DNA of 64,000 bases from Yuukianura sp. NJ FZ-2021 (lineage: Eukaryota), in contig CM102286.1 of NCBI GenBank assembly GCA_046563655.1, forward strand, positions 7,874,001 through 7,938,000. Reading direction: 5' to 3'. The notes under the pieces were generated by a model, which worked only from the letters and a program-made list of their open reading frames with translations, had not been told where the DNA came from and made no database searches. Shown here piece after piece: positions 1-38,900 of this stretch. The position numbers and the translations under genes are program-made. Every line of letters starts with the position of its first letter. Position 1 is the first letter of the stretch.

Positions 1-469
1 CCTTTGACTTCAAAGAATGTCAGCGTCTTTTTTGTACATTTAGGTGGGATTAAGTCCGGATTTTGTGAATGTTTACAAATGGTGTAAAGGACTTGAGTAT
101 GAGAGTTGATATTCAATTTACTTAAAAGAGTTGTTAAATGTACAGCTAATTTATAATTAGTTTGTATCCACTCATTTTAATTAAATGTAACTTCTATATA
201 TTCAAGGTAGAAGTAATTTGTCAGTCAGTCGGATTCCATTCATGGAAGGAGTTTTTTGTTCTATTTTTACTAATGTGATATGTAGTCCGACTGATTGGAA
301 AAGTAATGCACCAAATAAAGAAATTATCGTAATTTCCAGAAAAATTGCAACTTATTCACTTTTTTTTTAATTTTAGCAATAAAATCCAAAGTTCTCAAAC
401 ATTGTATATTTTTGCGTAAAAAGATTCAGAAACTAAAATAAATCTTTAAGATAGGCATTGAGCTTCCAT

Positions 470-1393: not shown

Positions 1394-2111
1394 CGTTCGA
1401 TGTGGATATCTAAAAGTAAAGTAGATTTTTCCAGTAAATCTCATTAAATTACGATTTCACGCCCAGGAATTTGCATTAACCAGAAGCTGAAATACACTCG
1501 ACAGGATGTCATCTCATTCATTTTCTCATGCGATCACAAGACACTTTAGACTTCAGTGCTTGGTTTCTTTGGTCGGCGTCAGTCAAGCTGACACTACTGT
1601 CAACGTCAACTCAGGATACGTCTTTTCTAGATACGTGTCGACGTGTGATAAGTAGTTAACAATAACGCAAGAAATCCACGTTCAAGGCTCTCCATGATCA
1701 AAAAGTTTATATTAACCGGAGCTAAATCTTAAATTTTTAACAGTAATCGATTTTCGTTTGCCGATTCAACTACTACATTAAATCCCACTTCAGGGAAAGT
1801 AGAACACCTCGGGCGTTAGGTATTTTCGAATTTTGGAAATCAAATTTCCAATTCAAACAAAACAAAAAAAAAAAAAAAAAAAAAACCAGCGGACGCTACT
1901 ATAAAATTGTGCTGCTTTTATAATTGGGTTCTCAAAAACACCGGCGCGCGTATTTTGAACTTATCTTCCAAAACAAGAGAGAAAAACCAATCTGTACTTT
2001 TCCGAAAAAAAAAAACAAAAGAACGAGGAGGAAAGTTAACTTTTAATTAATTATCAGTGGCTTTTAACGTGACATCTTGCGTTAACGGTGCTTCAGGACG
2101 TACCTGCAAGA

Positions 2112-14851: not shown

Positions 14852-17800
14852 AATTTCTGAAAATTTTACGGAAGGGACCCCTGAGGGTCCCCTCCAAGCT
14901 GCCACTAAGTCCTGTTCAAATTTCAAAGAAATGAATTTTTCCGAAACCCAAAAATGTGAAAATTTTTTGAAAGTTTTCGGAAAATTCAAAGTACTGACCA
15001 CGCCCAAAGTCCAGAATGTTTGCAAATTTTATGGAAGGGACCCCTGAGGGTCCCCTCCAAGCTGCCACTAAGTCCTGTTCAAATTTCAAGGAAATGAATT
15101 TTTCCGAAACCCAAAAATGTGAAATTTTTTTCAAAGTTTTCGGAAAATTCAAAGTACTGACCACGCCCAGAATCCAGAAATTCTGAAAATTTTATGGAAG
15201 GAACCCTTAAGGGTCTCCTCCAAGCGGACACTAAGTACTGTGGAAATTTCAAAGAAATGAATTTTTCCGAAACCCAAAAATGTGAAAATTTTTTGAAAGT
15301 TTTCGGAAAATTCAAAGTACTGACCACGCCCAAAGTCCAGAATTTTTGAAAATTTTATGGAAGGGACCCCTGAGGGTCCCCTCCAAGCTGCCACTAAGTC
15401 CTGTTCAAATTTCAAAGAAATGAATTTTTCCGAAACCCAAAAATGTGAAAATTTTTTGAAAGTTTTCGGAAAATTCAAAGTACTGACCACGCCCAAAGTC
15501 CAGAATGTTTGCAAATTTTATGGAAGGGACCCCTGAGGGTCCCCTCCAAGTTGCCACTAAGTCCTGTTCAAATTTCAAAGAAATGAATTTTTCCGAAACC
15601 CAAAAATGTGAAATTTTTTTGAAAGTTTTCGGAAAATTCAAAGTACTGACCACGCCCAAAGTCTAGAATTTTTGAAAATTTTACGGAAGGGACCCCTGAG
15701 GGTCCCCTCCAAGCTGCCACTAAGTCCTGTTCAAATTTCAAAGAAATGAATTTTTCCGAAACCCAAAAATGTGAAAATTTTTTGAAAGTTTTCGGAAAAT
15801 TCAAAGTACTGACCACGCCCAAAGTCCAGAATGTTTGCAAATTTTATGGAAGGGACCCCTGAGGGTCCCCTCCAAGCTGCCACTAAGTCCTGTTCAAATT
15901 TCAAGGAAATGAATTTTTCCGAAACCCAAAAATGTGAAATTTTTTGAAAGTTTTCGGAAAATTCAAAGTACTGACCACGCCCAAAGTCCAGAATTTTTGC
16001 AAATTTTATGGAAGGGACCCCTGAGGGAGGGTCCCCTCCAAGCTGCCACTAAGTCCTGTTCAAATTTCAAGGAAATGAATTTTTCCGAAACCCAAAAATG
16101 TGAAATTTTTTTGAAAGTTTTCGGAAAATTCAAAGTACTGACCACGCCCAAAGTCTAGAATTTTTGAAAATTTTACGGAAGGGACCCCTGAGGGTCCCCT
16201 CCAAGCTGCCACTAAGTCCTGTTCAAATTTCAAAGAAATGAATTTTTCCGAAACCCAAAAATGTGAAAATTTTTTGAAAGTTTTCGGAAAATTCAAAGTA
16301 CTGACCACGCCCAAAGTCCAGAATGTTTGCAAATTTTATGGAAGGGACCCCTGAGGGTCCCCTCCAAGTTGCCACTAAGTCCTGTTCAAATTTCAAAGAA
16401 ATGAATTTTTCCGAAACCCAAAAATGTGAAATTTTTTTGAAAGTTTTCGGAAAATTCAAAGTACTGACCACGCCCAAAGTCTAGAATTTTTGAAAATTTT
16501 ACGGAAGGGACCCCTGAGGGTCCCCTCCAAGCTGCCACTAAGTCCTGTTCAAATTTCAAAGAAATGAATTTTTCCGAAACCCAAAAATGTGAAAATTTTT
16601 TGAAAGTTTTCGGAAAATTCAAAGTACTGACCACGCCCAAAGTCCAGAATGTTTGCAAATTTTATGGAAGGGACCCCTGAGGGTCCCCTCCAAGCTGCCA
16701 CTAAGTCCTGTTCAAATTTCAAGGAAATGAATTTTTCCGAAACCCAAAAATGTGAAATTTTTTGAAAGTTTTCGGAAAATTCAAAGTACTGACCACGCCC
16801 AAAGTCCAGAATTTTTGAAAATTTTATGGAAGGGACCCCTGAGGGTCCCCTCCAAGTGGCCACTAAGTCCTGTTCAAATTTCAAAGAAATGAATTTTTCC
16901 GGAACCCAAAAATGTGAAATTTTTTTGAAAGTTTTCGGAAAATTCAAAGTACTGACCACGCCCAAAGTCCAGAATTTCTGAAAATTTTATGGAAGGGACC
17001 CCTGAGGGTCCCCTCCAAGTTGATACTAAGTCCTGTTCAAATTTCAAAGAAATGAATTTTTCCGAAACCCAAAAATGTGAAATTTTTTTGAAAGTTTTCG
17101 GAAAATTCAAAGTACTGACCACGCCCAAAGTCTAGAATTTTTGAAAATTTTACGGAAGGGACCCCTGAGGGTCCCCTCCAAGCTGCCACTAAGTCCTGTT
17201 CAAATTTCAAAGAAATGAATTTTTCCGAAACCCAAAAATGTGAAAATTTTTTGAAAGTTTTCGGAAAATTCAAAGTACTGACCACGCCCAAAGTCCAGAA
17301 TGTTTGCAAATTTTATGGAAGGGACCCCTGAGGGAGGGTCCCCTCCAAGCTGCCACTAAGTCCTGTTCAAATTTCAAGGAAATGAATTTTTCCGAAACCC
17401 AAAAATGTGAAATTTTTTTCAAAGTTTTCGGAAAATTCAAAGTACTGACCACGCCCAAAATCCAGAAATTCTGAAAATTTTATGGAAGGAACCCTTAAGG
17501 GTCTCCTCCAAGCGGACACTAAGTCCTGTTCAAATTTCAAAGAAATGAATTTTTCCGAAACCCAAAAATGTGAAAATTTTTTGAAAGTTTTCGGAAAATT
17601 CAAAGTACTGACCTCGCCCAAAATCCAGAAATTCTGAAAATTTTATGGAAGGAACCCTTAAGGGTCTCCTCCAAGCGGACACTAAGTACTGTGGAAATTT
17701 CAAAGAAATGAATTTTTCCGAAACCCAAAAATGTGAAAATTTTTTGAAAGTTTTCGGAAAATTCAAAGTACTGACCACGCCCAAAGTCTAGAATTTTTGA

Positions 17801-18410
17801 AAATTTTATGGAAGGGACCCCTGAGGGTCCCCTCCAAGCTGCCACTAAGTCCTATTCAAATTTCAAAGAAATGAATTTTTCCGAAACCCAAAAATGTGAA
17901 AATTTTTTGAAAGTTTTCGGAAAATTCAAAGTACTGACCACGCCCAAAGTCCGGAACGTTTGAAAATTTTATGAAAGGGACCCCTGAGGGTCCCCTCCAA
18001 GCAGACACTAAGTACTGTGGGAATTTCAAAGAAATGAATTTTTCCGAAACCAAAAATGTGAAAATTTTTTGAAAGTTTTCGGAAAATTCAAAGTACTGAC
18101 CACGCCCAAAGTCCAGAATGTTTGCAAATTTTATGGAAGGGACCCCTGAGGATCCCCTCCTAGCTGCCACTAAGTCCTGTTCAAATTTCAAAGAAATGAA
18201 TTTTTCCGAAACCCAAAAATGTGAAAATTTTTTGAAAGTTTTCGGAAAATTCAAAGTACTGACCACGCACAAAATCCAGAAATTCTGAAAATTTTATGGA
18301 AGGAACCCTTAAGGGTCTCCTCCAAGCGCACACTAAGTACTGTGGAAATTTCAGAGAAATGAATTTTTCCGAAACCCAAAAATGTGAAAATTTTTTGAAA
18401 GTTTTCGAAA
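14852..18410. repeat. Satellite array A, ~163-bp unit, about 22 copies
   Basis: GGGACCCCTGAGGGTCCC (or its variant) recurs at 14874, 15037, 15200, 15363 and onward (period 163). Confidence 0.97.
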
Positions 18411-18419
18411 ATTTAAATA

Positions 18420-18937: not shown

Positions 18938-19260
18938 CGTGGTCAGTACTTTGAATTTTCCGAAAACTTTCAAAAAAATTTCACATTTTTGGGTTTCGGA
19001 AAAATTCATTTCTTTGAAATTTGAACAGGACTTAGAGGCAGCTTGGAGAGGACCCTCAGGGGTCCCTTCCATAAAATTTTCAAAAATTCTGGACTTTGGG
19101 CGTGGTCAGTACTTTGAATTTTCCGAAAACTTTCAAAAAATTTTCAAATTGTTGGGTTCCGGAAAACTTCATTTCTTTGAAATTTCCATAGGACTTAGTG
19201 CCCACTTGGAAGGGACCCTCAAGGGTCCCTTCCATAAAAATTTCAAAAATTTTTCTGGAA
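18938..19260. repeat. Two inverted copies of satellite A, the second drifting towards satellite B
   Basis: gcgtggtcagtactttgaattttccgaaaac... is the reverse complement of the array A unit. Confidence 0.92.
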
Positions 19261-22200
19261 GTGCGTGGCCAGCACTTAAGTTTTTCACAAAAAATTTCCC
19301 TTTTTCTGGAGTTTACAACCTCGGAGAAAGTGTTCAACGCATAAATCTACCTCGGAATGGGTACCCACGAGAAGGGACCTTTCTTGGGTACCTTCGTTAA
19401 AAATTTCAAAAATTTTTACTGGAAGGGCGTGGCAAGCACTTAAGTTTTTCTTCAAAAACATCGACTTTTTCTGGAGTTTACAACCTCGGAGAAAGTGTTT
19501 AACGCTTAAATCTACCTCGGAAAGGGTACCCACGAGAAGGTACCTTTCTTGGGTACCTTCGTTAAAAATTTCAAAAATTTTTACTGGAAGGGCGTGGCAA
19601 GCACTTAAGTTTTTCTTCAAAAACATCGACTTTTTCTGGAGTTTACAACCTCGGAGAAAGTGTTTAACGCTTAAATCTACCTCGGAAAGGGTACCCACGA
19701 GAAGGTACCTCCCTTGGGTACCTTCCTTAAAAATTTCAAAAATTTTTACTTAAGTTTTTCTTCAAAAACATCGACTTTTTCTGGAGTTTACAACCTCGGA
19801 GAAAGTGTTTAACGCTTAAATCTACCTCGGAATTGGTACCCACGAGAAGGTACCTCCCTTGGGTACCTTCCTTAAAAATTTCAAAAATTTTTACTGGAAG
19901 GGCGTGGCCAGCACTTAAGTTTTTTTCCAAAAAATTTTCCCTTTTTTTGCAATTTTCAACCTCGGAGAAAGTGTTTGACGCTGAAATCTACCTCGGAATG
20001 GGTACCCACGAGAAGGTACCTCCCTTGGGTACCTTCGTTAAAAATTTCAAAATTTTTAATGGAAGGGCGTGGCCAGCACTTAAGTTTTTTTCAAAAATTT
20101 CCCCTTTTTTTCCACTTTTCAACCTCGGAGCAAGTGTTCAAGGCTTAAATCTACCTCGGAATGGGTACCCACAAGAAGGTACCTCCCTTGGGTACCTTCG
20201 TTAAAAATTTCAAAATTTTTACTGGAAGGGCGTGGCCAGCACTTAAGTTTTTCTTCAAAAACATCGACTTTTTCTGGAGTTTACAACCTCGGAGAAAGTG
20301 TTTAACGCTTAAATCTACCTCGGAAAGGGTACCCACGAGAAGGTACCTCCCTTGGGTACCTTCCTTAAAAATTTCAAAAATTTTTACTTAAGTTTTTCTT
20401 CAAAAACATCGACTTTTTCTGGAGTTTACAACCTCGGAGAAAGTGTTTAACGCTTAAATCTACCTCGGAATTGGTACCCACGAGAAGGTACCTCCCTTGG
20501 GTACCTTCCTTAAAAATTTCAAAAATTTTTACTGGAAGGGCGTGGCCAGCACTTAAGTTTTTTTCCAAAAAATTTTCCCTTTTTTTGCAATTTTCAACCT
20601 CGGAGAAAGTGTTTGACGCTGAAATCTACCTCGGAATGGGTACCCACGAGAAGGTACCTCCCTTGGGTACCTTCCTTAAAAATTTCAAAAATTTTTACTG
20701 GAAGGGCGTGGCCAGCACTTAAGTTTTTTTCCAAAAAATTTCCCCTGTTTTTTGCAATTTTCAACCTCGGAGAAAGTGTTTAACGCTGAAATCTACCTCG
20801 GAATGGGTACCCACGAGAAGGTACCTCCCTTGGGTACCTTCGTTAAAAATTTCAAAAATTTTTACTGGAAGGGCGTGGCAAGCACTTAAGTTTTTCTTCA
20901 AAAACATCGACTTTTTCTGGAGTTTACAACCTCGGAGAAAGTGTTTAACGCTTAAATCTACCTCGGAAAGGGTACCCACGAGAAGGTACCTCCCTTGGGT
21001 ACCTTCCTTAAAAATTTCAAAAATTTTTACTTAAGTTTTTCTTCAAAAACATCGACTTTTTCTGGAGTTTACAACCTCGGAGAAAGTGTTTAACGCTTAA
21101 ATCTACCTCGGAATTGGTACCCACGAGAAGGTACCTCCCTTGGGTACCTTCCTTAAAAATTTCAAAAATTTTTACTGGAAGGGCGTGGCAAGCACTTAAG
21201 TTTTTCTTCAAAAACATCGACTTTTTCTGGAGTTTACAACCTCGGAGAAAGTGTTTAACGCTTAAATCTACCTCGGAAAGGGTACCCACGAGAAGGTACC
21301 TCCCTTGGGTACCTTCCTTAAAAATTTCAAAAATTTTTACTTAAGTTTTTCTTCAAAAACATCGACTTTTTCTGGAGTTTACAACCTCGGAGAAAGTGTT
21401 TAACGCTTAAATCTACCTCGGAATTGGTACCCACGAGAAGGTACCTCCCTTGGGTACCTTCCTTAAAAATTTCAAAAATTTTTACTGGAAGGGCGTGGCC
21501 AGCACTTAAGTTTTTTTCCAAAAAATTTTCCCTTTTTTTGCAATTTTCAACCTCGGAGAAAGTGTTTGACGCTGAAATCTACCTCGGAATGGGTACCCAC
21601 GAGAAGGTACCTCCCTTGGGTACCTTCCTTAAAAATTTCAAAAATTTTTACTGGAAGGGCGTGGCAAGCACTTAAGTTTTTCTTCAAAAACATCGACTTT
21701 TTCTGGAGTTTACAACCTCGGAGAAAGTGTTTAACGCTTAAATCTACCTCGGAAAGGGTACCCACGAGAAGGTACCTTTCTTGGGTACCTTCCTTAAAAA
21801 TTTCAAAAATTTTTACTGGAAGGGCGTGGCAAGCACTTAAGTTTTTCTTCAAAAACATCGACTTTTTCTGGAGTTTACAACCTCGGAGAAAGTGTTTAAC
21901 GCTTAAATCTACCTCGGAAAGGGTACCCACGAGAAGGTACCTCCCTTGGGTACCTTCCTTAAAAATTTCAAAAATTTTTACTTAAGTTTTTCTTCAAAAA
22001 CATCGACTTTTTCTGGAGTTTACAACCTCGGAGAAAGTGTTTAACGCTTAAATCTACCTCGGAATTGGTACCCACGAGAAGGTACCTCCCTTGGGTACCT
22101 TCCTTAAAAATTTCAAAAATTTTTACTGGAAGGGCGTGGCCAGCACTTAAGTTTTTTTCCAAAAAATTTTCCCCTTTTTTGCAATTTTCAACCTCGGAGA

Positions 22201-23262
22201 AAGTGTTTGACGCTGAAATCTACCTCGGAATGGGTACCCACGAGAAGGTACCTCCCTTGGGTACCTTCCTTAAAAACTTCGAAATTTTCACTTGAAGGGC
22301 GTGGCCAGCACTTAAGTTTTTTTCAAAAATTTCCCCTTTTTTTTGCACTTTTCAACCTCGGAGAAAGTGTTAAACACTTTAATCTACCTCGGAATGGGTA
22401 CCCACGAGAAGGTACCTCCCTTGGGTACCTTCGTTAAAAATTTCAAAAATTTTTACTGGAAGGGCGTGGCAAGCACTTAAGTTTTTCTTCAAAAACATCG
22501 ACTTTTTCTGGAGTTTACAACCTCGGAGAAAGTGTTTAACGCTTAAATCTACCTCGGAATTGGTACCCACGAGAAGGTACCTCCCTTGGGTACCTTCGTT
22601 AAAAATTTCAAAAATTTTTACTGGAAGGGCGTGGCAAGCACTTAAGTTTTTCTTCAAAAACATCGACTTTTTCTGGAGTTTACAACCTCGGAGAAAGTGT
22701 TTAACGCTTAAATCTACCTCGGAATTGGTACCCACGAGAAGGTACCTTTCTTGGGTACCTTCGTTAAAAATTTCAAAAATTTTTACTGGAAGGGCGTGGC
22801 AAGCACTTAAGTTTTTCTTCAAAAACATCGACTTTTTCTGGAGTTTACAACCTCGGAGAAAGTGTTTAACGCTTAAATCTACCTCGGAAAGGGTACCCAC
22901 GAGAAGGTACCTCCCTTGGGTACCTTCCTTAAAAATTTCAAAAATTTTTACTTAAGTTTTTCTTCAAAAACATCGACTTTTTCTGGAGTTTACAACCTCG
23001 GAGAAAGTGTTTAACGCTTAAATCTACCTCGGAATTGGTACCCACGAGAAGGTACCTCCCTTGGGTACCTTCCTTAAAAATTTCAAAAATTTTTACTGGA
23101 AGGGCGTGGCCAGCACTTAAGTTTTTTTCCAAAAAATTTTCCCTTTTTTTGCAATTTTCAACCTCGGAGAAAGTGTTTGACGCTGAAATCTACCTCGGAA
23201 TGGGTACCCACGAGAAGGTACCTCCCTTGGGTACCTTTCTTAAAAATTACAAAAATTTTTAA
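19261..23262. repeat. Satellite array B, ~165-bp unit with 145-bp deletion variants, about 25 copies
   Basis: GTACCCACGAG recurs at 19361, 19526, 19691, 19836, 20002 and onward (periods 165, 165, 145, 166). Confidence 0.97.
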
Positions 23263-23768
23263 TGGAGTAAATTTAAAGCAATTTTTGCAATAAATTGCCA
23301 GCTACACTTCCTGCTTCTGCTAATTAATGTAAGTTAGTTGAGTTTTATATTTTACTACATTTAAGTAAATTAGAAAATACTTCCGATGCCCATATGCGAT
23401 TTTGCATTGCTTCGGCTGCATGGTATCACGTAATCTGAAAATAGGGTGAAAGTCCATAGTTAACTATGGGAGAAAGCCATAGTTAACTCCAAATGGACAC
23501 CGATCCTCCAGAATTATTTTACCTCTCTTACTCTTCCCTCCAGGTTAACTTTTTTGCTTTTAGTTAATTCGAAAAGTGCAACTGGTTTTTTAATTAAAAC
23601 CGATTGAGTGAAGAAATCCAATCAAACGTGGAACTGAAGCAATAACTAAGGTAAGTCAGTTTTGGATACATTTGCATCCTTTCTAAAAATAAGCAATAAG
23701 TTATGTAAAATTAACCAATTTAAGCATGCACTGATTGAAGTTAATTTTCTTGCAGGCATTAATCGACC

Positions 23769-26495: not shown

Positions 26496-26614
26496 TATGC
26501 ATTATCTTACATTATGCGTTTGAACCTTGGCAGGGATTCTAACATCGTTAACGTAGTTGTGCTTATTAGCTTAAATTCAAAAGCTGATTTTTCAGCCGTT
26601 ATTTAGTTAACTTA

Positions 26615-27314
26615 CCCTAATTCCTCGCCTACAAGCCGCGGCTTATCTGAGAAATTTCGAAAAATTTTGAAAACAAAATAATTTTTTTCGCTGAAATCTG
26701 AAGAATTTTGTTAAAAATCTGTAGGAATTGCTGGTAAATGTGCTAAATCCTATTTAAAACGGTTTTCATCTAATGTTAATTCATCAAATCCACCATTTTT
26801 GCCACGGTTCTGGTGCCTGGCGAATCAAATTTGTACGAATTCGTGCATAATTAGAAGATTGTTTGAGGAAACTGGAAATAATTTTACTTTCACAGGGCAA
26901 CTCAGATTTTTATAATTTTCTTTCTCAACAAACTAACCTAACCTAGCCTACCAACAACATTGTTTAAGCCTTTTTTTTTAAAAGTAACCGAGTTAAGTTG
27001 CAAAACGTTGAAAAAAAATTTACATGAGCCCGTATGGGGACATTTCAATTTTCAAACTTTTTTAAAAATTTTAGTTTTTGAGAGTGTAGTAAAAAAAAAT
27101 ATAGCAGGGGTCCACAGGTATTTTAGGAAAAAATCGGAGTTACACGATGAAAGTTACACCTGACATGATGAGTTACAATTACACCTGAAACTGTACTAAT
27201 CTGTACAGTTTCCTTTTCAACTTTAAAGTTTGCGTTTTTGAGCTATCAAGGTATTTTTTAAAATTCCTTGGTGCGGCTTATACGCGAGTGCGGCTTATAG
27301 GCAAGGAATTAGGG
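26615..27314. mobile_element. pogo/Tigger-like MITE (700 bp)
   Basis: 25-bp TIR CCCTAATTCCT(C/T)GCCTA(C/T)AAGCCGC, TA on both flanks, no coding capacity. Confidence 0.88.
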
Positions 27315-27406
27315 TATTTCTATTTCCAATTGAATAATTATTATTTGTGAAATTATGTTTCAATTGTTAACTACAGCCAGAACGAAAACCAAATTCCACT
27401 CATCTC

Positions 27407-27931
27407 TATGGGGGGAGTTTTGCTGATTAATGTTAGGAATTTTTCCACATTAGGAATGCCTAAAATACGGGCTATTCCTGACGCAGAACATCCTGACGTC
27501 GGATTCCTGATGCAGAAATTCCTGACGTTCAATTTCTAATGCAGAAATTCCTAACGCAGAAAATCGTGACGTCCAATTCCTAATGCAGAAAATCGTGGCG
27601 TTCAATTCCTAACGCAGAAAATCCTGGCGTCAAATTCCTAACGTAAAAAATCCTGAGGTCCAATTCCTAATGTAAAAATTTCTGACAGTGATTTTCTAAT
27701 GTAAAAATTCCTGGCAGCGAATTTCTAATGTAGAAAATGCTGACAGATAATTTCTAATGCAAAAAATCCTGACAGACAATTTCTAACGTAAAAAATCCTG
27801 ACACACATTTTCTGAAGTAATCAGCTGATTCCTAATGTAAAAATTCGTGGCGTGGAAAGTTCGTGTTCAATTCCTGGCGAGGAAAGTTCACAGGCTTTCA
27901 CTTTCTCATTTTCATTCTCTCTCTATTGTAA
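27407..27931 (+). repeat. Left TIR with internal ~29-bp tandem repeats
   Basis: Reverse complement of 35376-35887; repeats like ttcctaacgcagaaaatcctgacgtccaa at ~27476-27850. Confidence 0.92.
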
Positions 27932-28258
27932 CACATTCTTTCTACTGTTGAGAGAGGGCGTCAATGGCATGCATAAAATACTTGGTTATGTGATAGTTTA
28001 TTTACAAATGTTGAATGGAATATAATAATAAATATATATATAATATATATAATATGAGTATTATAAGTATTAACAAGAAAATTCAACGTCTTCTTATACT
28101 AAAAACGAAGAGACAAATTCCAACAAAAGCTTTCTTGAAACCAGATCTTTTAGCAATAGTCATTTGAGTTAAGGATACAGGGATACAGTAATTAGATACA
28201 ATAATGAGGATTACTTGAATTTTAAATCTAATTAGGCGTAGGAGGGTAGCGCTACCCA

Positions 28259-29516
28259 TTAATTAAAATAAACTCTAACGAGGACTCGCAGTTTCTCTTT
28301 ACAGATAGGACATCTTGGAGACTGTACTCTTCCAAAATCATCGCGCGGAACGTTCGCTTTTACGCCTTCGATGCATCGGAGACAGTACTGGTGGCCACAT
28401 TTTAAAACGTACTCCTTGTTGTGATCGTAACAAATTGAGCACAGCATCTGCAGTCCATAAACGATTCATTACTGCTCAAATATTTATGCATACTTATATC
28501 CATGCCAGACTCGTTAGCTTACCCCCGTTTTTAGAGAGTCCATTTCCTCATTGACACGATGTGACCCTTGTTCCTTAAGAACTTCTTTGCGTCTTTTCAA
28601 TTCCTTCAGTTCTGTTTCCATATCCCTGCAATCAGAGAATTGTTGCAGACAATTCAACATATGCTCTGCGTCAGCGATCTTCTTCTGAATTGTTTCCAGG
28701 TTAGTCAGCATTGATTCGAAAATTTCTGATGTAGGAGAGCGCTCTCCTAGTTTGCTTTGACAAACTTCCAGGTCAAGTTCGACCTCTTTAATGAAGTCGT
28801 GAAGCCTCGGACCTTGTATGCCAAACTCCTTCAATTGCGCAACAACCTTTGAGACTTTCGCGTACAGAGGTTGTCTAACTTCGAACAATTGATTTACAGT
28901 GAGTTGAAACATTTTGTCTTCCTCGTCCCAAAACCGTGTTCCCCTGTAGCATTCTATATACTAAAACAAAAGAAAAATAACACTTTTAAGATTGGCCGCA
29001 ACAAAAAAACTAGGCTAGATGAATGGATCGCGCGATCCTTACGTTTCTCGAATGCGCGATACCATCCCTCATTGATGCTAGTCGCGACTTTAGTAGCTGG
29101 TGCAGTTCGGTCGCAGTTACTAAATCTTCGCGATGAGACATGAGAGTTGGCTTTTGGATATAGTATAAACCAAACTCCACCTCTGCGATCACGTCCAGTT
29201 CAGCGTCAAGGTGCTTACGTAACATGTCTCGCTGCAATGAAAGTTTCAAGTTATTATCTTATCTCCTCACAGATTTCACTTCTTAGCAGATAATGTTAAA
29301 CAATGCATTACTTACATGATGAATAACTGGTGAAGTACGGATACTTTGCTTCTCTCGCCATTTCTGTTTCTCCGCTTCCGGTTTTGGAGCCAGCATTCTG
29401 CGTTCCGTTACTGCTGAACGTTTTGTTTGGATGGCGCCATCCGAGCGCATATCCGTCGTACAAGCACGTCGGTGATGGCCTAAACTACCGCAAGACCAGC
29501 ACCCACTGGAACTCAT
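28259..29516 (-). CDS. Zinc knuckle + coiled-coil + C3HC4 RING protein (~338 aa; exons 29516-29316, 29231-29043, 28960-28523, 28447-28259), putative E3 ligase
   Basis: CWSCGSLGHHRRAC (CX2CX4HX4C); heptad-like middle region; CSIC...CGHQYCLRC...CPIC; three phase-0 GT-AG introns give an open frame. Confidence 0.85.
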
Positions 29517-30796
29517 TTTAACGTGAAACAACTTTCTGGAATTTATAAAGAATTGAATGTTTATATTTTCTGGAAGCGTGTAAAACTAATTCTAAAACTT
29601 GGCCTGAAGCTAAACACTAACGAGCATCGTTGCAACCACCACTGTCATCTGTGTCTACAGTTCATAGCTAACCGCCGCAACCACATCGCTCATGATTCCT
29701 ACAACATGAACATTTACTCAATTTGATTTCGAATGGTTTTTTATATTGAAATATTTCCATAAATTGTAAGGACAAAAGATAAATACATTACTTAAACTTA
29801 ATTACAAAATTACTATTATTCGTCCTTACTTCAGCCAAAATAACTGTGCGATTGGTGTATCTAAACCACTGCTATTTCGGACTACGAATTCGAATTTTTT
29901 AACTACGAATTCGAAAAGACTTATGTGGCGTGGAATAAAACCTAGATTTCTCAAAAACGAAAGTCCAGATTTTGAATTCCTTTCGCAGGTTCATAGCACG
30001 CATGAATCTGCGTACTTATGGAAAAATTTAGCTTTCGCACTGGTCGAAGTCGAAAGTTATGACCATCCTTTTCCACCAGCTTGGCTAGATTTGAGGACTA
30101 CAGAATTAAAATTTTGAATACAACTGATACAACTGAACAAACAGTAATCACTATGACTGATTCTGACGATACATAATAAAAATTAATTAATACACTACAG
30201 CTCAAAAACGACTGTCCAGATTCTGAACTCGTTTTGTACACTTAAAGCTTCTATATTGAAGGATGTTTCAAGAAATTTGTAGCTTTCTTGCTGATCCAGG
30301 TCAAAAGTTATGACAATTTAATTTCAAAACCTACCCACTCTCGCTTAAATAAGGCTTTGAACCTTGGTAGCTTAAATCCTATCTCAACGCCTTAAAGTAA
30401 AGATAAAGTACCGTATTTTAAAGCAAAACTGTTTTCATAAGGTTTCATTGATGAATTCCACTGGCGGTCAAAAGAGATTATGTTTTACGTTAAATTAAAT
30501 TATTAATTAATTAATTATCATATCTCATTAATTAATTTATTAATCAACTATCAATTAATGAAAAGACGGGTTGAAAGCCCACGTCTTCTACTGATTTCTG
30601 ACTATAGGTTGTCAATATTCATTTCTTAAAAAAAGTTGAATAAGTAACTGACCACCGAACAGTTCGAGTTCTGACTATTATCCAGACCCCTCAGGTATTT
30701 CTTTGGAACCTGTTTACTTCCCGTGTTTTCACAGTATTGAACTACTATGCTTATTGCATTTCGTGTAGCGCTACACTTTAAGGTGCATTGCTGGTT

Positions 30797-32500
30797 ATGG
30801 AGCACCTAACGCAGCAATCCTTACGTTGCTCAATCCAGCAACTCATCAACGCTTTAAACGAAGGTGCGGATTTAGACATAGTCACACAAGGTTTAGATTT
30901 CCTGTTGTTAGAACTCGAGCTGTGTAACCAACAGGAACACTGGGTTGTTGAATCGGTGTCTAAATTGACAGAAGTTACAGCTCTATTGGTGCAAGAGTTG
31001 GAAGGGGAAACATTGCGCAAACTAGGAAGACCAAGAATTCATATTCCTATTGAAGATATTGAGTTTTTACTATCCTTCCGGTTCAAAGTCGTGGATATTG
31101 CCAAGTTGTACGGGGTGTCAAGGGATACAATAAGTGGACGCCTTCGAGACCATGGGATTTCGGTAACTACTAAGTTACACCATGCTTAGCGCTAAGCAGT
31201 AAATGTGAATGGGCTGACTCTGTTTTGTGAACAAAATTATCAGGTTTCCCACAGCTATACAAACCTAACTGACGAACAACTACAGTCGGAAATGCTGAAA
31301 ATTTTACAAGACTTTCCAAACACAGGGTACAAACGAATGAAAGGATTCCTCTTAAGCAATGGCATTAAGGTGGCGGACAAAAGGGTTCGACTAGCTATGA
31401 GGGAAGTTGACCCTGAAGGTGTCGCTTTACGACGACGAGGCAACAGAGCCATAGTACGCCGGCAATACAGAATGACCTATTCCAACGAGCTATGGCATTT
31501 GGATACAAATATGAAGTTGATCAGGTTGACAAATTTAATAACAGCAGTTTAAGGAAGTTGGAAAGCGCTTTCCGTTGTTAAATGTTTTAAGTTTATTTTA
31601 GGTGGAACATTATAATCAGGAGCTGTATCGATGGGAAGTCACGGGTTGTAGTTTATCTGGATGCCAGTGCCGATAACACGTCCAAGAGTAATTTGGAATC
31701 ATTCTTAAAAGCTGTGACAAAATATGGTATTCCTTGGAGGACTCGCTCGGACAAAGGCGGGGAGAATGTGTCAATTGCTCAATTCATGATTGAAAACCGT
31801 GGAGCTGGAAGAGCAAGTCATATTTGTGGTAGGTCGGTGCACAACCAAAGGTGAGTAGCGCTACTCCAAAAAAAAAATAGTGTCATATCATAAAACCATA
31901 ATCTTAGTTTGTAATTATGTTAGGATTGAGCGGTACTGGAGAGACGTTTACTATGGGTATACGAGCACAATTGCGAGTGTACTAATTGCGCTGGAAGAGG
32001 ATGGGTACCTGGACATAGATAACCCGAAGCATGTAGAACTTGTCCACTTAGTATTTGTTCCAAGAATTAATGACGCTTTGGAAGTTTTTCGAAATGCCTG
32101 GAATAATCACCCATTGTCGACGGAAGGAAATTATAGTCCAAATCAGCTCATGTTACTCAACCTGCCGCCCGATGACCATGTCCAACACATTTCTCAGGTA
32201 CTTTGCGTAGCGCTACGCATCGGAGTTGAGAAAATATAATGTTTTTTCATGACGAATATACCAAATCCGTTCCTGTTTCCGTAGGAGGATGTGGACGACT
32301 ACTTGTGCCAGGACTTGTCTGATGTTGCGTACCTGGTTCCACCGGATGTGGATTCGATAACATCGCCAATGAGTTTGGCCGGAAGTATTACAGAAATTGA
32401 ATTGGATAGACTAAGACAGCTGGACTTCAACCAACCGTCATCCAGCTTTGGCTTTGACATATTTCTAAACGCAGTGGGCCTACTTGATTTCACATCGTAA
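30797..32500 (+). CDS. IS3/integrase-like DD34E transposase (~461 aa; exons 30797-31162, 31244-31524, 31602-31850, 31924-32197, 32285-32500)
   Basis: HTH (VVDIAKLYGVSRDTISGRL), GYKRMKGFL, catalytic WHLDTNMKL, RSDKGGEN, HNQRIERYWRDV; all splice junctions preserve the frame. Confidence 0.92.
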
Positions 32501-32746
32501 AAAACGAAGCAGATTTTGTTTAATCTGAATAGGATTAAATAAATTAGTGTGGCGCCGCACTACAGAAAATAAGCTGAAATCGTATCAGTTAGCGTTTTCT
32601 CGCAAATATTGCTACATGTGGCGCCACATAAAACGAAATAAATAATCTGAAAGAACTAAACTAGAAGTAAAGTAGCATGGGTTTTGTGAAGTTCGAATTA
32701 AGTAAATACATAACGCAACAACAATAAGTACACTTCCTCCGACGTG

Positions 32747-35170
32747 CTAGACTCCCCCGAAACCGTTGCTTGCGTACCGCACGACGAGATTCAACTTCTC
32801 CACTAGTTCCGTGCAACTGAGGTCATTTGGAATTTGTATTTCATTGAAGCACGCACGAACCATGAAGTCAACATCGTCTTCAAAACGTACAATTAAAGGA
32901 TCTTCCGGTAAAACGGGCCAACCAGTCCACGCGGACAGCAGATTCTGTAGACCACCTGAAACTAAATATAGCAGTTAGTATGTTGAGCATTCCGGAGTAG
33001 CGCTACTCAACTTTGAGTAACGTAACTTACGCAGTTCCAAAGATTCTATGAAGCTGGTTACAACCGAAAGCATTTCTTGTCTTCCGTGACATTCGATTTT
33101 GGAAATAAGCAAGCTGGAAGGATAATTAAGTGCTGAACTCCGAGGAAATAAAGATTCAACTAAGTACGACTTTCCTTTCAGGAATTCATTCAGTCCTGCG
33201 CACTTGAATCCAGCTTTAATCGCCTCCAGTTGTGCAACGCGACGGTCGACGACGGCATGATATAACACTTGTTCTATGACAAAGCCAGAGTTGTGTTTGT
33301 CGACGGTTTCTCCGAATTCCGATGATTCTGCCACCTCTTGCACATGCGCTGCCTCATCCTCCGTTAGAGTGGCGCCACTCTGCAGTTTCGCCAACTAATT
33401 TTTTTCAAAGTTGCGTGAAATTAAATCAAAAGTTAAGTTAATCAAACAACAAAATGATTAAGTTACCAATGCAACTGCTTCACGAACGTGAAGTTCTGGA
33501 ACGTCCTCCACGGTGATAGGAAGTGGCGTATCACTATCAACGGTTTCAAGAAATACGTACTGCGCCACCGCCTCACTCAATCCAATAAACGCGATTCCGC
33601 AATGTAAAGCAGCGTGACCCAAAAACTTTCCAATCGTTTTGAAAACCCCAGCGCGAAGGAGCCTTCCATCTGTTGCCGGAACCTTGTGGTCTAGTTCACC
33701 TTCGAAAGCAGGAAGGCCATCTATCTTGTCTTGAACTATTGCCGTCAGTCCTTTCCAAAAGTATTCACGAGTTATTGCTCCAATGTCGGCCCCTTCAAAA
33801 TGATAGTTAAAATAAACTAAACATTTTAATCAATATAATTAGTTGGATAGCGCTATCCTAGTACCGGGTTCACCCTGAAATTCTACTTTTGGTTTCTTCA
33901 GGAAGTTGAACGCAGGATCCTTGTAAATGCCAAGAATTTTTTCTAGAAAACGCTCTCTTGAAGCAAGAATATACTGAAACCCTTCGTTTTCCATGTAAAT
34001 TTGTTCGCGGTAATGGTCCAATGTCAATAGTTCTCCCTCGATTGATGGCGATGAGTTCGCAGATGTATCGTTCCGGGTAACCTCCGACAAAGGCAAGTGC
34101 TGATTAACAGCACCCTCGAGTGTTGAATTTAATGCCGAAGGCTGTCGTCCGTCTCCGACCGGTGTCTAAAAAATGGATAACGCCATCCATTAAACATTGT
34201 TTATCACTAACCTCAACATAGAACTTACAACCATATAATTTGAGCGAGGAAGTTGAAGATTAACTTCAGGTTCGGCACTCAAGCCTTGGTGAAGCTCCTC
34301 TGAATCCACTGGTATGGGTTGATCAAGCTGAACATCCACTGCTACGTGTGGTAACGGTTGTTCAATTCCTTCCGCAACCTGTGTCAAGTGTAAACAGTTC
34401 CAATTACAGTTAGTTTTGATTAGGATAGCGCTATCCATACAAAGCAATACTTAAAATGAGTGTAGACGAGGAACGTAACTTACACTTAAAATGTCGGAAA
34501 CTGGCTGGACGTAGATAACTGCAAGTCGAGAAGCGCGTAAATGCAGCACACCAGGCACTGGCTCCGTGTTTGATACTCGAACCAATGGCTTCCCTTTACC
34601 ACCAGTCAGTGCACGATATAATACAACACCTACTGCAACTAATTTTGGGAAAGTGCTTTCCAGTGCCGCCTTCAATGCGTCAATTGTTGCAGTGGGATCT
34701 AGCAAAGTAACAATTGATCATTACCCATGCCACACTCTACACCTTTATTTAAAAAAAAACTAACCAATTGTGATAACTTCTTCCCCTAGTCCATGCCTTT
34801 TGAGAAGTAGCATACGAGATTCGATTGGTGTTTTCGATTCCGAAGGTCCACCAAGACAACAGTACCTGGCAGTCCAAGGCCTTATATTACGTACCGGTAT
34901 GGAACGATGTCGAAGTGCTGGGCGCCCAGTTAATCGCAGACCAGCAGCTGAAGTCGATGGTCTAGGATAAGGTGCAAACAGGCGAGACATTTCGGATCGC
35001 GCGAGTCCATTGGTAGAGCTTCCGGATTGACCTTGTTCTTGTCTTCGAGTTACCACTGGTGTAGTGTGACCCGGAGTCACTGTTGTAGCTGTTGGAGACT
35101 CAACGCCAAGTAAACTAGCAAGTTGGGTAAGAATTTGAGTAGCAGTAGCTCTGGTATTTCCATCCGCCAT
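32747..35170 (-). CDS. HECT-domain E3 ubiquitin ligase-like protein (~656 aa; exons 35170-34765, 34698-34484, 34378-34229, 34165-33865, 33792-33467, 33394-33031, 32955-32747)
   Basis: VEFQGEPGADIGAITREYFW, FKTIGKFLGHAALH, QLEAIKAGF, LLSAWTG, catalytic RACFNEIQIP and C-terminal GFGGV*; frame intact across 6 introns. Confidence 0.88.
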
Positions 35171-35375
35171 ATTGGGCTGATTTGTATTAGTTCCGGTGTT
35201 AGAAAACCGTCACGACAAAATTCTACATTGATTGATATACAGTATTTGAAATATCGCAACACTTATCCACAAAAGAGTGGCGCCACTCAACAGACGTGTA
35301 GCACTACACCTAAAAATGTAACGCTAGTTTTTTTCATTGCCGATAACGCCCCCTCTTGACGGTTGCAAAATGTTT

Positions 35376-35887
35376 TTACAATAAAAAGTGAGAATGAAAA
35401 TGAGAAAGTGAAAGCCTGTGAACTTTCCTCGCCAGGAATTGAACACGAACTTTCCACGCCACGAATTTTTACATTAGGAATCAGCTGATTACTTCAGAAA
35501 ATGTGTGTCAGGATTTTTTACGTTAGAAATTGTCTGTCAGGATTTTTTGCATTAGAAATTATCTGTCAGCATTTTCTACATTAGAAATTCGCTGCCAGGA
35601 ATTTTTGCATTAGAAATTCACTGTCAGAAATTTTTACATTAGGATTTGGACCTCAGGATTTTTTACGTTAGGAATTTGACGTCACGATTTTCTTCGTTAG
35701 GAATTTGACGCCAGCATTTTCTGCGTTAGGAAATGGACGTCACGATTTTCTGCGTTAGGAATTTAGCGCTAGGATTTTCTGCATTAGGAATTGGACGTCA
35801 CGATTTTCTGCGTTAGGAATAGCCTGTATTTTAGGCATTCCTAATGTGGAAAAATTCCTAACATTTATCAGCAAATCTCCCCCCATA
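35376..35887 (-). repeat. Right TIR of the IS3EU-like element
   Basis: Reverse complement of 27407-27931; inner ~250 bp nearly identical, repeat copy number differs slightly. Confidence 0.92.
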
Positions 35888-35911
35888 CATCTCTGAAAAA
35901 ATTTTCTCCTC

Positions 35912-38900
35912 TTATACGTTTCTCCTCAGAAACTCTGCTGGACGAGTGAAGTCCCCGTCGCCACTTTCGGCATCTTCTGCAAGGTCATGTGGGATTTCCT
36001 TAATGTTGTCAGATAATTTGCGAGATACTTGTGCAAATTCGCGATTCGTTTGAACCACTTTCTCTAGCTTTGCGATCAATTCATAGTCGGGTACAATGGT
36101 TTTGCTCCAGTCAATTCCAAGTATTTTTCCCACGGTAGTGCGCAAATTAAGGAGCTGAAATAGACAAACATCATCAGAGTATCAAACAAAAAAGAAACAT
36201 AATGTGTAACCTCCATGATTGATGCATGCAATTTACCTGATTTTCACGTCTTGACGATTCCAATAGGTTCTTCCGGCAAGCATTTAACTCTGAACTTAGT
36301 CTCTGGAATGCATTATCATTTAAATCTCGTTCCTGATTGGTGTTTTCGCGTGAAATTTTGAGCTGGTCTTTTAGCAAATTCACTTTCCTGTTATACTTGA
36401 CCCGAAGGACTTCCATATCATTCAGTTTAGTCTCCAACTCTTCAATTTTTCTTGCCCTTTCCAAGGAAATAATCTGCAAATGTTTGGAATTCTGAAAAAG
36501 TTACACTTGATTCAGAAGTAGCTTGTAAATCGTACTTTGTATTCCGTCGCGTCTGTCAAGTGCAACTTCATATCTTTCACAGAAAGTCTTGATTCGCGCA
36601 GGTCCAGCTCAAGACGTTCAACTTGCTTGATGAGCTTCTTGCATCTTGCGGTCGCTTCATCTCGTTCCAGTTCCAGCGTTGTTCTTAGCTTAATGCTGTC
36701 TTCGAGTAAAGTAATTTTCTTCCTTAGCATATCCAAATGCAAATCTTTCTTCTCCATCTGCTCTTTTAACGTACGAACTCTTCGCTGAAGTTGATACACT
36801 GATGCAGTCTATTTAAAAAAAGAAGCGAAGAGACAAGCAATTAAAAACCAAGCAAAGTCACAACTGTAAGCATTCTATTTGAATTTTGAAACTTTCTAGA
36901 AGCATACTTTATCTGCCAAGCGATCGCCCTCCAATTTTGCCAGTTGCGTCGCTCTTGTTACAATCGCATCCGTCTGAAGGTCGAATCCGAGTTCCTTGGA
37001 AACTTCGTCCAGTCCCAAAATATTTCCAAGTTGCTCCAGAAATTGCATATACTAAATGTAAGTATCAGAAAAAGTAAAATCCAGTGAATTTTAGTAAATG
37101 TTTGGTCTTTTGAATCTCACTCTGTTCTTATCCCTGCGTAATCCTTCGTTTAGGATTTCAGTTGTTGTTAGCTGGGTCTCCGTTTCCTGAAGCTTTTTGA
37201 GTGAAATCACCTTGTCACTAATGGCATCCTCTTGCTTGCCCTTTGAATCCGACAGTAACTTTTCGAGACGTTCGACATTTTCTGTTAATCGTCCAACCTT
37301 TTCCTTCAGTTGGTCATTGGCCTGTTTAAAAGGAAAAAGCAAAACATTGAAAAAACTCTTGAAAGTTCAAACAAAGCATTTACGTATAGTTTCTCCTTCA
37401 ATTCATTTTGGATTTCCTTGATTCTTTCTCGGATTCCGCTTGGACTATCCACCGTTCTAGATCCAGTAGATAACTGAATTGCTATTGAATCCTGAAAATT
37501 TCGAAGTTCTTTTTCAGTTCTGCTATTTTTCTCTTCAGCGACCAGTAGATTTTGTTTCAAGGTGTGTAGTTGCAGTTCCATGGTTTTCGCTTGCTCGTTC
37601 AAATTGGAGACAGTTCTGTCAGTAATGGAAGAACGCTCTTTGTAACTCCCTAGTTCGGTTTGAAGATATGATTTTTCTGTTTGAATTTCATCCTTCTCCT
37701 GAAAAATTAAAATATAAATGATACCAAAAAACTGGCGTTAGTAAGAAATTCACCTCAAATTAGGATATGTTCTGACTCACTCGTTTGAGCGAATCAACGC
37801 TGGACATGAACGAAACTATCCGCTGGTTGGAGTTCTCCTTTTCGGAATTAAGACGATTAATCATTTCCACATTAATTTTAGTTTCCCTCTCGAAAGATTC
37901 AATTGATTGCCTCATTTCAGCAACCTTGACGCTTAGTCTTCGGTTTTCCTTAAAAAAATTGAAAAATAAAAAACATAAAAAACGAAACCAAAAATAAAAT
38001 ACATTTAAAAAATCCAAAGTTATTGCTGCTATTGCGCAGTAGGATTTTACCTGGAAAACTTCGTAGACGCGTTTCAGAATAGCGTCCATCTTGGGAGATT
38101 CTTCTTGCAGGTCAACTGCTTGGCCCAATTTTTTGCAAAACTCCAACAGACTTTTCTGTGAATGCTCCTTGGCTTGATCCGCTCCATCTCGATCAATCAG
38201 CGTAGACCTTCAATGACAAAAAACAAACTTAATTACTAACTTAGAGTAGAACAATGACCACCAAAACGTTTAGCTCACCTCAGCTGGCTCTGTAGGTCTT
38301 CAATAAAATTTTGATTATGCTGAAGTTCGTGTTTACAACGAGAAATTTCATCTTCCTGCCTTTGATTCGTTGTAGAAAGTTGTCGCTCGCGTTCCTCAAC
38401 GTCCTGAATAGACAAAGCATGACGTAAAATTGAAGATGTTTAACAATCAATTAATTGGATCATGCAAATTACCTGAAGTTTCCGCTGCAGGGAACCATTG
38501 ATGGCATTAAGTCGAGCTAAATTCTCCTTCAAATTGTCAATTTCAGCATTCAGACGCTGCAAAGAACCGTCTTTGGTCTTCATCCTGTTTTCATTGTCTC
38601 GTAACTAAAAATTATCATAACATAATAAATTAATAAATAATAAATAATAAAATATACAAAAATAAAGTAAACAAATTATTCTAAATTGTACAATTAATCA
38701 GTTGAAAACCGCTTACCTCTTGAGTTAATCGATCATTTTTGTACTTCAGAGCTGCAATTTCACTTTGCAGATGTGTGTCTGCTGGAATATCGTCCTGCAA
38801 CATTAAAAACCAATCCCAAGGCTTAAATTGTGATTAAAAAGTTAATTATGTTAAGGTACAGAAACGAATTATTACTTCAAATGAATTGGTATATTAATTA

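Follow-up and report, generated by a model that had tools for sequence, protein, structure and literature searches.

An intact, recently mobile IS3EU-type transposon of Yuukianura sp. with two putative ubiquitin ligase genes and a regular array of palindromes

The genome of Yuukianura sp. NJ FZ-2021 (GenBank assembly GCA_046563655.1) contains, on contig CM102286.1, a stretch of 64,000 nucleotides (positions 7,874,001 to 7,938,000 of the forward strand, hereafter the window), and an 8,481-bp transposon occupies window positions 27407-35887. The element is flanked on both sides by CATCTC, a perfect 6-bp target site duplication (TSD), and its termini have the form TATGG..CCATA: the left boundary (27401-27417) reads CATCTC followed directly by TATGGGGGGAG, and the right boundary (35877-35893) reads CTCCCCCCATA followed directly by CATCTC. 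Between long terminal inverted repeats (TIRs) lie three genes (Table 1), namely a transposase gene, a HECT-type gene that is convergent with it, and a gene for a protein with a CCHC knuckle, a helical region and a RING domain that is divergent from it. The genes were modeled from stop-to-stop frames, Pfam scans of those frames, and a search for GT-AG introns that keep the frame; all three are open from ATG to stop, with predicted GT-AG introns of 63-105 nt. A series of GCGC-centred palindromes runs through the same interior. By its termini, its TSD and the core of its transposase, the element is an intact IS3EU/GingerRoot transposon.

Table 1. Features of the element and of its surroundings (positions in the window; exons in the order of transcription).
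Feature	Position	Strand	Description
Left TSD copy, CATCTC	27401..27406	unstranded	single copy kept in unoccupied-site contigs
Left TIR	27407..27968	+	starts TATGGGGGGAG; 29-bp subterminal repeat array at ~27474-27853
CCHC-knuckle/helical/RING gene	28259..29516	-	4 exons, 338 aa
RING gene exons	29516-29316, 29231-29043, 28960-28523, 28447-28259	-	predicted
Divergent RING/transposase intergenic region	29517..30796	unstranded	only long interior stretch without a palindrome
Transposase gene	30797..32503	+	5 exons, 461 aa, DD34E, Pfam rva_4
Transposase exons	30797-31162, 31244-31524, 31602-31850, 31924-32197, 32285-32503	+	GT-AG introns of 81, 77, 73 and 87 nt
HECT-type gene	35170..32747	-	7 exons, 656 aa (651 with the alternative acceptor at 33380)
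HECT exons	35170-34765, 34698-34484, 34378-34229, 34165-33865, 33792-33467, 33394 (or 33379)-33031, 32955-32747	-	predicted
Right TIR	35340..35887	-	ends CTCCCCCCATA; 29-bp repeat array at ~35460-35836
Right TSD copy, CATCTC	35888..35893	unstranded	from the sequence and the unoccupied-site contigs
16 perfect GCGC-centred palindromes, 12-18 bp	28244..35288	unstranded	consensus ~G-N-R-T-R-GCGC-Y-A-Y-N-C
Palindromes 1-8	28244-57, 28732-49, 29025-38, 29429-42, 30763-76, 31183-98, 31560-73, 31853-66		
Palindromes 9-16	32204-19, 32616-29, 32995-33008, 33366-81, 33845-58, 34423-36, 34918-29, 35275-88		
5-Oxoprolinase gene (Hydantoinase_A/B domains)	~2.7-7.8 kb	+	animal host gene
C2H2 zinc-finger genes (cluster of reading frames)	~8-13.4 kb	-	animal host genes
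WD40-repeat exons	~40.3-41.9 kb	-	animal host gene
ABC-transporter exons	~47.5-50.3 kb	+	animal host gene

The transposase has its catalytic residues at D209, D266 and E301, the last two being separated by 34 residues, and its core exons scored 110.9 and 78.2 bits against Pfam rva_4 (PF24764; cut-off, 26), a domain carried by all 22 of its database relatives. Upstream of the core, weak matches to HTH_21 (E 2e-4) and HTH_23 (E 0.03) were found. When nine of the 22 relatives were aligned with the window protein, five were continuous across junction 2, and three more, which are fragments called as open reading frames (ORFs), had in-frame read-through inserts exactly there; junction 3 was continuous in six of the nine. 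Because the junctions are continuous in homologues, introns 2 and 3 are well supported, and their positions are common to the closest relatives. Comparison of the core with viral contigs gave no match, and a match to a bacterial metagenome-assembled genome in a scan of genome contigs extended over 22 residues only and was discarded as chance.

Comparison with published IS3EU transposases supports the class assignment. In Data S3 of PMC10045372, the cores of IS3EU-1_CVi, IS3EU-1_SK and IS3EU-3_CGi carry the motifs LWH[IV]D.NHKL[IV]R, W..I..G.IDG.SR, VRSD[KM]G.ENV and G[RK]S[VT]HNQRIERLWR[DE]V. The corresponding motifs in the window are LWHLDTNMKLIR, WNIIIRSCIDGKSR (also given as W.IIIRSCIDGKSR), RSDKGGENV and GRSVHNQRIERYWRDV, and a motif-by-motif comparison made by eye rather than with a tree finds them nearly the same as those of the three published elements. 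As far as the accessible portion of PMC10045372 describes them, every complete IS3EU family has TA..TA termini, the TSD is usually one of 6 bp, and the transposases are without an HHCC finger and have the first catalytic D at 100-300 residues from the N-terminus; the termini of fungal families are given as TAYGG..CCRTA in the available part of PMC12730594. The window element agrees with these descriptions in the alignment of the core, in its TA..TA termini and 6-bp TSD, in the absence of an HHCC finger upstream of the core, and in the position of D209.

The TIRs are about 560 bp long. Their direct end-to-end alignment gave a mean column identity of 94% over 578 columns with a single 15-bp indel, and a repeat search returned them as two pairs of arms, 27545-27922 with 35387-35764 (378 nt, 97%) and 27407-27556 with 35738-35887 (150 nt, 87%). 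For the 29-bp repeats in each TIR, TRF counted 9.2 copies on the left and, in overlapping rows, 9.5 and 6.3 copies on the right. The inner ~213 columns of the alignment are identical, and the outer ~300 bp near the termini hold ~25 mismatches and the 15-bp indel; if the TIRs had simply decayed from the inside, the opposite gradient would be expected. As separate observations, GACGTC is present in several of the 29-bp units, and the 12-bp palindrome AATCAGCTGATT occurs in each TIR (27819-27830 and 35479-35490).

An initial annotation of this DNA, made from the letters of the sequence, had described TIRs of ~0.5 kb, TATGG..CCATA ends, a perfect CATCTC TSD, and three uninterrupted spliced genes, with the HECT gene convergent and the RING gene divergent relative to the transposase gene, and had taken the whole for an intact IS3EU-like transposon. 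The boundary sequences and the TIR alignment bear out the ends, the open predicted models agree with the genes and their orientations, and the termini, the 6-bp TSD and the transposase core all fit the published IS3EU elements. The check by profile hidden Markov models that it had proposed came out divided: rva_4 and zf-C3HC4 passed, and zf-CCHC and the single exons of the HECT gene stayed below their cut-offs, with the scores given below.

Evidence on the mobility of the element came from four public runs (X1, X3, X4 and X5), which belong to two studies and whose contigs were aligned to window positions 27000-36300; X1, X3 and X4 are listed as the same sample, and X5 is labelled as a different organism. 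A contig that joins 27407 straight to 35912 was found in three of the four runs (X3, X4 and X5) and not in X1. At its joint stand 19 letters, a slightly diverged copy of the 17 bases 35895-35911 of the right flank, and the contigs represent the unoccupied site, which has a single CATCTC and is without exactly the 8.5 kb of the element. Because this unoccupied site is without the whole 8.5 kb, the three genes move as one. Other contigs start at the left terminus behind mutually unlike flanks, three of them in X1 (at 27407) and five in X4 (at 27406), the consensus agreement of the unlike flanks being 0.58 and 0.5 in the X1 and X4 contigs, respectively. Deletion derivatives that run from TIR to TIR were found with the joints 27438>35774, 27595>35770 and 27457>35543. 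Copies differing by 1-3% are present in X3, X4 and X5, and pieces of the interior are 96-99% alike in the other runs and in the second organism. In X1, the word depth was 45.7-51.1 in the interior, 41.1 in the unique right flank and 292-789 in the TIRs, that is, 5-19 times the interior depth in the TIRs; these depths therefore point to about one full-length copy of the exact sequence accompanied by many short relatives.

Taken with the open frames, the presence of the insertion in X1 and its absence from three runs, the other flanks and the deletion derivatives show that the insertion at this locus is recent and that the element has recently been mobile. The supposition of the initial annotation that the element was probably recently active thus stands, as does its placing of all three genes inside the mobile unit, and the empty site and the copies elsewhere that it had suggested looking for did appear in the contigs of the runs. 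The abundance of short TIR-bearing derivatives, which is evident from the high TIR depth and the TIR-to-TIR joints, does bring up a different explanation, since two such derivatives could be near neighbours: two short nonautonomous TIR elements would then flank a piece of host DNA with three unrelated genes, and the composite would have moved once or never. We regard such an origin as very unlikely because of the exact TSD and the empty site. The two ends are properly inverted, a single perfect 6-bp TSD surrounds the whole, and the unoccupied site is without exactly 27407-35887; in addition, one of the inner genes is the matching IS3EU transposase gene, and the likeness of interior pieces among the runs and in the second organism would be difficult to reconcile with a chance assemblage.

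Of the two genes that accompany the transposase gene, the HECT-type gene encodes a protein composed of a low-complexity N-terminus, a conserved module of ~70 aa encoded by exon 2, and a HECT region. Two of its relatives are central to the assignment. P0025, a protein of 548 aa, matches Pfam HECT with 56.3 bits over profile positions 22-305 of 306 (cut-off, 23.9), and phmmer aligned residues 378-654 of the window protein with it at E 4.5e-30. P0034, a protein of 922 aa that is deposited as a "HECT domain-containing protein" of the springtail Folsomia candida (OXA50878.1), was aligned at E 2.6e-58 in three stretches that include the N-terminal module of exon 2; its neighbours in the Atlas are HECT clusters, some of which are named G2/M phase-specific E3 ligase-like, and these names are taken as a lead only. 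The hallmarks of HECT ligases are a catalytic Cys ~32-35 residues from the C-terminus and a Phe at position -4. In the window protein, Cys623 is followed by 33 residues, and the C-terminus, ...NGFGGV, has its Phe at -4; both residues are kept in P0025, P0010 and P0020, which are all three of the relatives whose C-termini were inspected.

An exhaustive HMMER search with exon 6 of the HECT gene found 32 related proteins at E<=1e-3, 12 of them at E<=1e-10. Nearly all are ORF calls of 86-186 aa from metagenomes and read assemblies that match the exon end to end, and because these relatives are exon-sized pieces with the same limits, the exon limits of the HECT gene are considered to be old. A word-index protein search with HECT exon 5 or with residues 360-922 of P0034 returned no relatives, the index seemingly being too coarse for the HECT family, and sequence searches of the PDB with the exon-6 profile and with P0025 returned nothing relevant. 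The AlphaFold model of the N-terminal module had a mean pLDDT of 63, which is too low for a fold search. A metagenome contig that emerged from a locus search based on the exon-6 relative P0002 proved to be bacterial (53% G+C, with a Fic-type HPFxxGNGR motif) and was discarded.

The last exon of the RING gene passed the Pfam cut-offs for zf-C3HC4 (30.7 bits; cut-off, 21), zf-RING_UBOX (32.5; 25.2) and zf-C3HC4_3 (29.5; 27), and the encoded residues 279-325 hold the eight metal ligands of a RING-HC (C3HC4) finger at the correct spacing. At the other end of the protein, residues 6-19 have the zinc knuckle pattern C-x2-C-x4-H-x4-C. Between them, the 146-aa exon 3 was modeled by AlphaFold (mean pLDDT, 73) as helices at its residues 13-45, 51-71 and 78-145. 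This layout, in which a long helical region precedes a RING at the extreme C-terminus, presumably resembles that of Bre1-type ligases.

The relationship of these two genes to the element is the next issue to be weighed. The closest named relatives of two of the element's proteins are from springtails. A transposase fragment, P0039, which is 78% identical to a core exon of the window, and P0002, which is 36-37% identical to HECT exon 6, are each found on a JGI contig of 7,401 nt. The two probably lie on one and the same contig because an equal size by chance is unlikely among the few dozen pairs; 20 of the 32 exon-6 relatives were checked, and only P0002 matches the contig size of a transposase relative. 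In addition, a 1,972-nt contig of X5 covers the RING gene from exon 3 past its stop as far as 27945, where it passes directly to 35358 and on into the start of the HECT gene. The join 27945>35358, which is on the same strand in a contig that aligns with 27945-29016 and 34977-35358, could reflect a different order of the genes, a tandem or circular junction from which the TIRs have disappeared, or a join made in assembly.

It is conceivable that the HECT and RING genes are passengers, i.e., host genes or copies of them that were captured in the manner of Pack-type elements, have no role in transposition, and are intact because the capture is young. GingerRoot elements have been reported to carry acquired gene fragments, according to the accessible part of PMC6839031, and a passive exchange of TET/JBP genes among fungal transposons is described in the available part of PMC12730594. 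The lower identity of the HECT relative than of the transposase on the putative shared contig (36-37% versus 78%) and the failure of the Atlas to provide relatives of the helical part of the RING protein would both be in keeping with such a capture. Both genes are, however, complete and have their own introns and upstream regions, instead of being fragments, and the exon limits of the HECT gene are common to distant relatives. Moreover, the palindromes described below cover both genes at the spacing seen in the transposase gene, which would be hard to obtain through a recent capture, the RING and HECT genes occur together in the second organism too, and an independent metagenome contig probably carries a HECT relative next to a related transposase. 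Capture as passengers therefore seems unlikely to us. Four observations, none of them decisive, namely the joint absence of the three genes from the empty site, the RING-HECT contig of X5, the probable shared contig of P0039 and P0002, and the run of palindromes through all three genes alike, lead us instead to see the HECT and RING genes as long-standing cargo of the element lineage and not as host genes caught by chance.

Several points weigh against the reading of the element as an autonomous unit with cargo of its own. On the side of the gene models, independent support for splicing, which comes from the alignment of homologues, is confined to transposase junctions 2 and 3, and the other splice sites are predicted. 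The best single-exon score against Pfam HECT was that of the last exon, 12.8 bits (E 0.095; cut-off, 23.9), so that the membership of the window protein in the HECT family is proposed by transitive homology; exon 1 of the RING gene reached 19.7 bits against zf-CCHC, slightly below the cut-off of 20.8; and a search of the Atlas for relatives of the helical exon of the RING protein found none, the best score being 0.75, which is not meaningful. Regarding the cargo, the X5 contig has a different arrangement from that of the window, in which RING adjoins HECT with no TIR between them, and the shared contig of P0039 and P0002 is deduced from equal size alone, with identities that differ as stated. 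Regarding mobility, the near single-copy depth of the full-length element in X1 leaves no full-length family for comparison, and although X3 and X4 are listed as the same sample as X1, nothing but the empty site and variant copies was seen in them. Weighing these points with the evidence presented above, we consider it quite probable that the element is an autonomous, recently inserted IS3EU/GingerRoot transposon with cargo that belongs to it. Judging from their domains, the HECT and RING proteins would most likely work to the element's advantage as E3 ligases, with host proteins or the element's own as substrates. The initial annotation had ascribed to them a possible part in degrading host silencing factors or in regulating the transposase, a purpose that is speculative.

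The interior of the element has a second unusual property, one that the initial annotation does not mention. Of its 30 GCGC sites, 16 centre perfect palindromes, where 2000 first-order Markov simulations gave a mean of 0.07 and a maximum of 2, and the other 55.5 kb of the window contain no GCGC-centred palindrome with arms of at least 6. The pattern GNNTRGCGCYANNC has 11 matches in the window, all within the element (0.04 expected), and its free NN positions are complementary in all 11, though the pattern leaves them open. Of the 32 half-sites, 29 have G at -7, 26 have T at -4, and 30 have a purine at -3, and positions -6 and -5 vary, always complementarily; pair counting over the 16 palindromes gave 112 paired cells out of 112, a count that is circular because the sites were picked as palindromes. 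Two additional sites, near 32552 and 34999, appear as decayed palindromes. Neighbouring palindromes are 291-578 bp apart (mean, 407; coefficient of variation, 0.20), with the single exception of a 1,334-bp gap across the intergenic region between the RING and transposase genes, and a smallest spacing of at least 291 bp was reached in none of 100,000 random placements.

The placement of the palindromes relative to the genes is also uneven. Eight are in introns, four in exons, and four in untranslated or intergenic regions; the intronic ones occupy all four introns of the transposase gene, introns 2, 4 and 6 of the HECT gene and intron 2 of the RING gene, and introns make up 14% of the interior (binomial P 6e-4). 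One of the exonic palindromes encodes GERSPT, a loop that connects two helices predicted for the RING protein, and the others look like they fall in linker-like or low-complexity segments of the predicted proteins. The overall pattern looks like the outcome of selection for one symmetric site per ~400 bp wherever coding permits, and it suggests that the interior is a single co-evolving unit. If they were transcribed, the palindromes could fold into stems of 5-7 bp with a GCGC loop and computed energies of -3.7 to -8.8 kcal/mol. The co-varying arms favour a hairpin or a process that generates symmetry, and the shared half-site consensus favours a sequence-specific reader. Rfam, at its gathering scores, and ARAGORN gave no match on the window. 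Known binding motifs (E2F-like and others), excision footprints and introner-type insertions were dropped by reasoning, given that the arms co-vary, that flanking TSDs are absent, and that half of the sites are outside introns.

The perfection of the symmetry may reflect the youth of the sites and not selection, and the palindromes might then be functionless by-products of composition or mutation, arising, for example, from a tendency of the genome that the family evolved in or from repeated template-switch mutations. This explanation, which we think rather improbable, would have to account for 16 palindromes against 0.07 expected, for the absence of arms of at least 6 from the other 55.5 kb, and for a minimum spacing that random placement never attained; it would likewise have to explain why the consensus is held at -7, -4 and -3, why the free positions are complementary in every one of the 11 pattern matches, and why the sites are in introns (8 of the 16) or in exon parts that code for linkers. 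One conceivable use of the palindromes, which are present in the DNA and, being symmetric, in transcripts of either strand, is that they are docking sites that recruit the element's own CCHC/coiled-coil/RING protein, and possibly its HECT protein, to its chromatin or nascent RNA, an idea that we put forward as a doubtful one. Equally doubtful is the further thought that ligases docked there would attach ubiquitin to histones or to silencing factors as they arrive, or would compact the 8.5-kb interior for the pairing of the ends.

A scheme for the life cycle of the element can be outlined as follows. The N-terminal helix-turn-helix region of the transposase would bind the subterminal arrays of 29-bp repeats, and the enzyme would then pair both ends, cut at the TA termini, and integrate with a 6-bp stagger, the donor copy being either cut out or, as in bacterial IS3, copied out. 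In this scheme, the HECT and RING proteins would be E3 ligases kept for the element's own benefit, and the palindromes might be cis sites of the same system.

The only long palindrome gap coincides with another peculiarity of the element. The intergenic region between the RING and transposase genes contains a direct duplication (29950-30066 and 30201-30317, at 251-bp spacing), and 30110-30420 is high-copy in all four runs, with depths of 265-4638 versus 15-330 beside it. In X5, the depth of 30110-30420 is 4638 versus ~15 nearby, and contigs break at 30127, 30271, 30301 and 30326. This high-copy stretch of ~200-300 bp is probably a nested short repeat. The surroundings of the element are also repetitive. 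The left flank, 27000-27406, where many contigs end, shows in each of the four runs a word depth 10-50 times as high as unique sequence does, and a 27-nt inverted repeat pair (26613-26639 and 27290-27316, 93%) may mark a short element beside the insertion site. Apparently, the IS3EU copy was inserted into another repeat or next to it. Two large satellite arrays, with periods of 163 and ~165 bp, are situated 4 kb to the left of the element, at 14852-18417 and 19223-23266, each with ~22 copies (matches of 94% and 73-87%) and with higher-order rows of 310 and 475 bp. The 12-bp palindrome TGGTTTAAACCA is found three times within 350 bp (4740-5083) between exons of the 5-oxoprolinase gene, which is one of the animal host genes listed in Table 1.

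Some viruses encode E3 ubiquitin ligases that remove host restriction factors. They offer a working analogy only, that of a selfish element with its own ligase altering host proteins, and they differ in that the case presented here is a cut or copy DNA transposon and not a virus. Should HECT and RING genes prove to be regular cargo, transposons would be, like viruses, selfish elements with ubiquitin ligases of their own. The Folsomia candida protein OXA50878.1 and the G2E3-like clusters are akin to the window HECT protein in that the ~70-aa N-terminal module and the whole HECT region can be aligned, in contrast to the PHD fingers of G2E3, which are absent from the window protein according to Pfam; none of these proteins is described as transposon-borne in the literature that was found. 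Regular HECT/RING cargo would also mean that G2E3-like HECT "expansions" that have been read as host adaptation, such as the 20 copies in sea cucumber mentioned in the available part of PMC9700323, need re-examination as transposon copies.

IS3EU is among the least studied superfamilies of eukaryotic DNA transposons, and structural and functional analyses of it were said to be largely lacking in a 2025 paper (PMC11934779, in the portion accessible). The present element could serve as an experimental model because the copy looks active, being present in one run and absent from three and having open frames. Its superfamily, termini and TSD are already known, and what we did not find in print are the two ubiquitin ligase genes as cargo and the palindrome array: HECT plus RING cargo in IS3EU was not found in the literature searched, Repbase records being outside that search, and no description of a regular palindrome array of this kind was found in the same literature. 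The array is a clear statistical signal with no counterpart there, and palindrome-docked ligases, if they are real, would constitute a cis-trans system of a kind new to eukaryotic transposons. The initial annotation stated that IS3EU elements are described with two proteins. That some IS3EU entries encode more than one protein is implied by Repbase names such as IS3EU-1_CGi_2p in the accessible part of PMC10045372.

Among known systems, the animal Repbase elements IS3EU-1_CVi, IS3EU-3_CGi and IS3EU-1_SK resemble the window element in their near-identical DDE core motifs, in the lack of an HHCC finger before the core with the first D 100-300 residues in (D209 here), and in their TA..TA termini and 6-bp TSD; the HECT and RING cargo, the 0.5-kb TIRs built of 29-bp repeats, and the palindrome array go unmentioned in the available portions of the published IS3EU accounts. 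The closest parallel in gene content is offered by the TET-bearing fungal elements IS3EU-7_PSt and IS3EU-3_PCor. Within the part of PMC12730594 that describes them, they share with the window element the termini TAYGG..CCRTA, the 6-bp TSD, and a set of three genes in which two accessory genes stand beside the transposase gene in mixed orientations. The three-gene layout as such is thus not new, because these fungal elements carry a transposase, a TET/JBP dioxygenase and an alpha-kinase, and the accessory enzymes are thought there to counter host silencing. The difference is in the nature of the cargo, which is a TET/JBP dioxygenase and an alpha-kinase in the fungus and a HECT and a RING protein in the animal.

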